Part shown: piece after piece, positions 8,801-9,406 of the stretch
Position numbering within the stretch: the first letter of the stretch is position 1
Layout: the number at the start of each line of letters is the position of its first letter
NCBI RefSeq assembly: GCF_003334815.1
Contig: NZ_QOWO01000045.1
DNA length: 28,560 nt
Source of the DNA: Escherichia coli
GTDB taxonomy: Bacteria; Pseudomonadota; Gammaproteobacteria; Enterobacterales; Enterobacteriaceae
Reading direction: 5' to 3' (one strand)
The notes under the pieces: model-generated
The model's database searches: none
The model's input: the letters and a program-made list of their open reading frames with translations, nothing else
What the model was told of the DNA's origin: nothing
Translations under genes and position numbers: made by a program

Positions 8801-9406
8801 GCATACCCGAAACTTGCAGCGGCTTATCCGTCAGGCGTGATCCCTGATATGCGTGGCTGGACGATTAAGGGCAAACCTGCCAGTGGTCGGGCCGTATTGT
8901 CTCAGGAACAGGACGGCATTAAATCGCATACCCACAGCGCCAGCGCATCCAGTACGGATTTGGGGACGAAAACCACATCGTCGTTTGATTACGGAACCAA
9001 ATCCACGAATAACACCGGGGCGCATACCCATAGTATTAGCGGGACCGCAAATAGTGCCGGTGCGCACCAACACAAGAGTTCCGGTGCATTTGGTGGCACG
9101 AACACGAGCATTTTCCCTAATGGTTATACCGCGATTTCAAATCCAAGCGCGGGGATTATGAGCACAACAAGCGGTAGTGGCCAGACTCGTAATGCAGGGA
9201 AGACATCATCAGATGGTGCTCATACCCACTCACTGTCCGGCACTGCTGCAAGCGCAGGTGCACACGCACATACTGTCGGTATTGGTGCTCATACGCACTC
9301 GGTTGCGATTGGCTCACATGGACACACCATCACCGTTAACGCTGCTGGTAACGCGGAAAACACCGTCAAAAACATCGCATTTAACTATATTGTGAGGCTT
9401 GCATAA
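5849..9406 (+). CDS. Chimeric ORF: Lom outer-membrane protein N-terminus (about 118 aa with signal peptide) fused in frame to side tail fibre Stf
   Basis: The N-terminus [24 protein letters not shown]...[12 protein letters not shown]...SVMAGP is Ail/Lom-like. From about nt 6200 (..[19 protein letters not shown]..) the protein is Stf-like with a long Ala/Ser/Thr-rich shaft and a His-rich C-terminus. GAGAGG Shine-Dalgarno upstream. Confidence 0.7.

Follow-up and report, generated by a model that had tools for sequence, protein, structure and literature searches.

The tip of T4 gp37 is available as a solved fold (PDB 2XGF). In this protein, the collar D10 consists of residues 811-881 and 1010-1026, the stem D11 of residues 882-931 and 960-1009, and the tip of residues 932-959, and the needle has seven coordinated iron atoms along its length (PMC6957217). 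In the crystal structure the seven iron ions are held by paired histidines (HxH), and the HxH motif is conserved in lambda (PMC11705849). H929 and H931 are iron-binding and essential (PMC6957217, PMC11705849), and structural roles have been described for G921, G964, and F970 (PMC6957217). The tips of T4 and lambda bind OmpC, or OmpC together with LPS (PMC6957217, PMC12617516), and in the receptor-binding protein family to which they belong a putative specificity segment is enclosed by conserved flanks (PMC9659904). The side tail fibre Stf of Ur-lambda is held on the tail by a collar made of residues 1-91 (PMC12617516). It has also been found experimentally that lambda recombines with stf/tfa of the defective Rac and Qin prophages (PMC3945230).

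The stretch of DNA analysed here (28,560 nucleotides; "the window") is from Escherichia coli 52F4, a calf isolate from Switzerland (contig NZ_QOWO01000045.1). It carries a lambdoid prophage in which the 5' part of lom is fused to the greater part of a side tail fibre gene, and the histidine-rich array under study is at the distal end of this fusion. The features referred to below are as follows.

5849-9406, + strand: continuous open reading frame (ORF) of 1185 aa that carries the HxH array.
5849-6196, + strand: lom', the first 116 codons of the gene for an Ail/Lom outer-membrane protein (Pfam Ail_Lom at aa 1-123, E = 2.4e-68).
6195-6197, + strand: deletion junction with TGG microhomology, where the BLAST pieces against the lom-stfR locus of B1-56 overlap.
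6197-9406, + strand: 'stf, a StfR-type side tail fibre gene from residue E65 to the stop (fusion aa 117-1185; PHROG 295).
8711-8923, + strand: N part of the collar, equivalent to gp37 D10 (aa 955-1025; aligned with gp37 811-881, limits according to PMC6957217).
8924-9073, + strand: outgoing strand of the needle stem (aa 1026-1075), with HxH motifs 1-3 at 8927-8935, 9023-9031, and 9065-9073.
9074-9202, + strand: hypervariable distal tip (aa 1076-1118, 43 residues; mean identity to homologues 0.11).
9203-9352, + strand: returning strand of the needle stem (aa 1119-1168), with HxH motifs 4-7 at 9221-9229, 9263-9271, 9290-9298, and 9317-9325.
9353-9403, + strand: C part of the collar (aa 1169-1185; aligned with gp37 1010-1026, mean identity 0.95).
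9406-9990, + strand: tfa, the tail fibre assembly chaperone gene, whose product is 95% identical to lambda Tfa (orf-194; E = 4e-141; PHROG 105).

The array is most probably the metal-binding core of a gp37-type receptor-binding needle, which forms the C-terminus of a lambdoid Stf and persists as an intact leftover; the probability of this reading is estimated at about 0.93.

The ORF contains exactly seven HxH motifs, whose first residues are aa 1027, 1059, 1073, 1125, 1139, 1148, and 1157. The array therefore spans aa 1027-1159, or 8927-9325 when counted from the start of the first His codon to the end of the last. Six of the seven motifs have the form GxHxH, and all 14 histidines in the last 160 residues of the ORF are inside the seven motifs. 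The initial annotation had reported HxH repeats in the distal 130 or so residues, and every string that it quoted is present in the in-frame translation of 8924-9406. The span that it gave for them, 8925-9335, does include the motifs, but position 8925 is one base out of frame, and a literal translation from there yields nonsense.

The simplest alternative, that the richness in histidine reflects chance or low complexity and serves no particular function, can draw on the Ser/Thr/Gly/Ala-rich composition of the region and on nothing more. When the residues of the last 160 or 235 aa were shuffled, HxH motifs numbered 1.1 or 0.8 on average, respectively, with a maximum of six, and seven were reached in none of 20,000 shuffles. 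Moreover, the positions and spacing of the motifs are kept across T4, lambda, and eight other phage fibres. This alternative was rejected on these two grounds, and its probability is practically nil.

The array is not a DNA tandem repeat, since TRF found nothing; a scan for inverted repeats was likewise empty. Direct DNA repeats between individual His boxes number only two, one of 18 nt at 94% identity and one of 13 nt at 92%. It is thus an array of motifs at the protein level.

The resemblance to gp37 is extensive. In a sequence search of the PDB with the last 235 aa (phmmer), the T4 gp37 tip (2XGF_A) was matched with E = 5.7e-83, and the alignment covered query residues 4-235 (aa 954-1185, the last 232 residues of the ORF) and residues 27-242 of the chain. 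The sole other match was the collar of a short tail fibre. Identity to T4 gp37 is 68.5% over about 220 residues. The collar is detected by Pfam (PF07484, aa 959-1006, E = 4e-11), and this match, together with the 95% conservation of the C-terminal 17 aa across homologues, places the needle as an insertion that splits the collar domain and leaves a conserved C-terminal strand, as in 2XGF. The 14-residue repeat Phage_fiber (PF03335) gives five matches centred on the HxH motifs, although their independent E-values (0.07-2.3) are sub-threshold. NCBIfam has no model for the tip.

The seven motifs pair one to one with those of gp37 at 883, 915, 929, 966, 980, 989, and 998. On the outgoing strand, H1027/1029 corresponds to H883/885, H1059/1061 to H915/917, and H1073/1075 to the pair H929/931. 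On the returning strand, H1125/1127 corresponds to H966/968, H1139/1141 to H980/982, H1148/1150 to H989/991, and H1157/1159 to H998/1000. The spacing of the motifs is the same in the two proteins (32 and 14 residues, then 14, 9, and 9) except for the interval between motifs 3 and 4 across the tip, which is 52 residues in the ORF vs 37 in gp37. Both stem strands align with gp37 (882-931 and 960-1009) free of gaps. Among the critical structural residues of gp37, G921 and G964 are matched by G1065 and G1123, and F970 is matched by L1129.

The crystallised gp37 construct (residues 785-1026) also contains exactly seven HxH motifs, and the count suggests one motif for each iron ion. The initial annotation had held that HxH repeats of this kind coordinate metal ions in the needle of gp37-type fibres, and it had proposed an alignment with the gp37 and Stf tips as a check. 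The published structural work (PMC6957217, PMC11705849) agrees with it on the first point; on the second, the similarity is overwhelming, with 75.5% identity to lambda orf-314 beside the values for gp37 given above. Two structure predictions were also made with AlphaFold2, one of the monomer (aa 951-1185, 10-sequence alignment; pLDDT 43.3) and one in which a trimer was imitated by three copies joined by (GGGGS)6 linkers (7-row concatenated alignment; pLDDT 34.8), and both are too poor to use. Metal binding and trimer geometry in the ORF are thus predicted from its alignment with gp37.

By homology with gp37, three chains would fold together with the help of Tfa, which is encoded in the adjacent gene. 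Each chain would leave the collar, run out along the needle (aa 1026-1075, motifs 1-3), form the distal tip (1076-1118), run back (1119-1168, motifs 4-7), and finally complete the collar. The HxH motifs of the three chains would together offer, on each of seven levels, six imidazoles to an ion on the threefold axis; the ion is Fe(II) in gp37 and may be the same metal here. The ions would take the place of a hydrophobic core in a thin, interdigitated needle of six strands, and the hypervariable tip between motifs 3 and 4 would contact the host receptor.

The tip is where the ORF and gp37 part. The two proteins share the collar, the seven motifs with their spacing, the C-terminal residues, and a chaperone gene directly downstream. 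In contrast, the tip of the ORF is unrelated in sequence to that of gp37 and 15 residues longer (43 vs 28), the chaperone is a lambda-type Tfa and not gp38, and the body of the fibre belongs to the lambdoid Stf type. The gp37 tip residues that bind OmpC/LPS (I933, N937, G938, and others) are not kept in this tip allele, and therefore the receptor may differ. A literature search for the receptor of mEp332 or of the Qin fibre gave no receptor data, the only paper found on mEp332 being one on qPCR methods.

For a wider comparison, the C-terminal region was aligned with T4 gene 37, lambda orf-314, phage mEp332, and the intact StfR of E. coli B1-56. Over the last 240 aa, identity is 75.5% to lambda and 100% to B1-56, and the C-terminus of mEp332, a plaque-forming lambdoid phage, is about 99.1-99.2% identical. 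By tblastn, this C-terminal domain was found in 629 of 50,697 phage records. These are mostly phages of Escherichia, Salmonella, Shigella, Yersinia, and Klebsiella, and include Tequatrovirus, P1-like, and lambdoid phages. In a set of ten diverse members, segment identities were calculated as means of the ORF against its nine homologues. They are 0.82 for the N part of the collar and 0.67 and 0.64 for the two stems, beside the values for the tip and the C-terminal strand listed above. The hypervariable segment is bounded exactly by motifs 3 and 4, and its 43 residues are the presumed receptor-contact surface. The number of HxH motifs ranges from four to eight in the same ten members, while the histidines themselves are 67-100% conserved among the homologues at the protein level.

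These patterns also bear on a second alternative, in which the GxHxH boxes matter mainly at the DNA level, as short patches of homology for the swapping of tips or the duplication of units. The 'His-box' idea was reportedly put forward for T-even adhesins by Tetart et al. in 1998. The exact coincidence of the hypervariable segment with motifs 3 and 4 would fit such a role, and so would the variable number of motifs, the extra GIGAHQHPV and SFDYGTKTTG units in lambda, and the fact that the 18-nt direct repeat joins motifs 4 and 6. However, with 13-18 nt the repeats are very short, and no array is detected by TRF, while the histidines are conserved in the protein and correspond to essential metal ligands in gp37. 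Because of this conservation and essentiality, a role in recombination would add to the structural role rather than replace it, and the DNA-level explanation as a substitute for the metal-binding core is unlikely. A further possibility, that the tip is in an invertible segment of the Pin/Gin type, was rejected because no invertase gene follows tfa in the annotated neighbourhood.

The ORF resembles the Stf of Ur-lambda (orf-401/orf-314) in the order of the genes (J, lom, stf, tfa, ea47, ea31, ea59, att) and in the identity of the C-terminal domain and of Tfa. It differs in its longer, StfR-type shaft with a gp34-like module, in its tip, whose sequence is unrelated, and in having Lom 1-116 in place of Stf residues 1-64. 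Lambda also has eight HxH motifs, with one extra GIGAHQHPV unit (9 residues) and an extra SFDYGTKTTG unit. The likeness to StfR of B1-56 is closer still, with only 17 of 1069 aligned residues different. From the StfR/StfQ-type fibres in general (B1-56, K-12 Qin, and mEp332), the ORF is set apart only by the lom fusion with its N-terminal truncation and by the neighbouring genes, which are pinQ/pinR in those fibres and ea47/ea31/ea59 here. Among 5,426 complete E. coli genomes, 995 have the 129 nt that encode the tip, 936 of these with an identity of at least 99%. One of them is K-12 DH5alpha, where the tip allele belongs to a truncated stfQ of the Qin prophage, beside tfaQ and pinQ; the allele is also carried by phage mEp332. 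Both the fold, which has been solved, and this exact allele were known before.

As a whole, 'stf is a mosaic in which the lambda StfN end and a shaft rich in Ala and Ser are combined with modules that resemble Mu gpS and T4 gp34 and with the gp37-like tip. Pfam places phage_tail_N at aa 115-186 (model positions 63-134 only) and Gp34_trimer at aa 715-814, and its matches in the PDB are 9e7m, 5yvq, 8ju3, 4uxe, and 2xgf. The shaft at aa 493-959 (about 7325-8725) consists of modules with solved relatives in unrelated phages, namely Mu gpS (5yvq, 8ju3) and T4 gp34 (4uxe, 5nxf). In the Ala/Ser/Thr-rich part of the shaft (about 6230-7440), the other frames and the opposite strand contain long ORFs of 311-378 aa that are spurious, and TRF detects no DNA tandem repeat there.

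The proximal end of the fibre has been reshaped by a deletion. Relative to the intact locus of B1-56, about 508 bp are missing at the junction, comprising the 3' end of lom, stf codons 1-64, and the intergenic region between them. M116 of Lom is joined in frame to E65 of Stf; the lom'::'stf junction reads GCGTATGCGATGGAAGGCTTCCCGCC. The annotation by PGAP divides the region into a lom pseudogene and a 'phage tail protein' that starts at GTG 6233. Since no Shine-Dalgarno sequence is seen before this GTG while the ATG of lom is preceded by GAGAGG, the continuous ORF of 1185 aa is the more natural reading.

The structure of the StfN collar (9e7m) aligns with the ORF over residues 57-94 of its chain only, so that the collar is incomplete. 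Together with the deletion of Stf 1-64, this shows that the attachment end is largely gone, with about two thirds of the StfN collar missing. The view of the initial annotation that the tip is intact and the attachment end lost is thus borne out: the last 565 aa are identical to StfR of B1-56, and the N-terminus is replaced by Lom 1-116. Among the best 25 genome matches, the region is a single uninterrupted piece only in the source strain, and the deletion consequently looks recent. If so, no selective explanation is needed for the intactness of the tip.

The fibre might nevertheless still be in use, mounted on the particles of another prophage or of a helper phage, in which case the tip would be under selection. 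The undamaged tip and tfa, the continuity of the ORF, the good RBS of lom, and the late-gene activator Q and lysis genes that remain upstream are all compatible with such use. However, Stf is kept only from residue 65, which leaves out about two thirds of the attachment collar, and the N-terminus is now a Sec signal peptide followed by part of a beta-barrel; the apparent recency of the lesion would account for the intactness without selection. Continued use is therefore very improbable, and the intact-leftover reading is preferred, under which the fibre would probably have no function in situ. Because stf codons 1-64 and the head and tail genes are lost, the fibre would not be mountable on a virion of its own prophage. 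Realistically, it could in future serve as a cassette that incoming lambdoid phages pick up by recombination.

One conjecture concerns the fusion protein itself. The gene lom is expressed in lysogens. With the RBS (GAGAGG) and the signal peptide of lom kept at the 5' end of the fused ORF, Lom(1-116)::Stf(65-end) might be produced in cells that have not been induced and be directed to the envelope, which is a highly speculative prospect. If this were true, the host would export a protein that bears a phage receptor-binding needle, and, for example, OmpC/LPS-dependent adsorption of phages or the aggregation of cells might be affected.

The setting of the fibre gene is a decayed prophage. The annotated neighbourhood shows a lambdoid prophage at attB-lambda in the lambda prophage order, with int and xis at one end, then rusA, quuD, the lysis genes, bor, and nohD, followed by a terminase large-subunit pseudogene, a J pseudogene, lom', stf, tfa, ea47, ea31, ea59, and then ybhB and bioA. 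In the PGAP annotation of the prophage, genes for the head, the tail, immunity, and replication are all gone, and a functional set of tail genes alongside the fibre gene is absent. At about 4138-5779 the terminase pseudogene, which lacks its C-terminus, directly abuts the J tail-tip pseudogene, which lacks its N-terminus. From this it seems likely that a single large deletion removed all the head and tail genes. The gene tfa is undamaged, and its start codon overlaps the stop codon of stf (TAATG).

The importance of the locus is small beyond its correct annotation, in which PGAP splits the continuous lom'::'stf ORF into a pseudogene and a tail protein from an arbitrary GTG. The tip module is a textbook tail-fibre tip that is shared horizontally between T-even and lambdoid phages, and about a fifth of complete E. 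coli genomes have its exact allele. Intact cassettes of tip and tfa in dead prophages may be regarded as a reservoir of new receptor specificity for infecting lambdoid phages, and as ready-made parts for the engineering of Stf chimeras.

Several minor observations may be added on the rest of the prophage. Between J and lom there is a strong terminator-like hairpin (5798-5821). The genes of the Q-lysis-nohD block are named by the annotator after those of DLP12 (quuD, essD, rrrD, rzpD, and nohD). On the other side of the fibre gene, the window (9933-15175) matches lambda (22500-27742) at 99.9% identity. The matching stretch takes in the 3' end of tfa, ea47, ea31, and ea59, and ends at the att core, which is at about 15157-15171 beside ybhB-bioA. 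The right arm is therefore essentially lambda itself, whereas stf is a mosaic of the Rac/Qin type.

The GenBank record MW057783.1, 'Campylobacter phage CJLB-4', is classed as Lambdavirus and contains tfa, ea47, and the split stf of lambda (orf-401/orf-314). Its DNA seems to be that of lambda under the name of a Campylobacter phage, possibly through contamination.

In the right arm of the prophage, the homologue of ea47 (10119-11378, - strand) matches only PHROG 19262, a family of unknown function (E = 2.8e-295), and has no match in PADLOC. The adjacent homologues of ea31 (296 aa, HNH) and ea59 (525 aa, AAA ATPase), at 11942-14406 on the - strand, are 99.9% identical in DNA to the lambda b region, and in PADLOC they form a two-gene defence candidate, with matches to PDC-M01B (E = 5.8e-113), PDC-M01A (8e-202), and Septu PtuA (8.8e-185).
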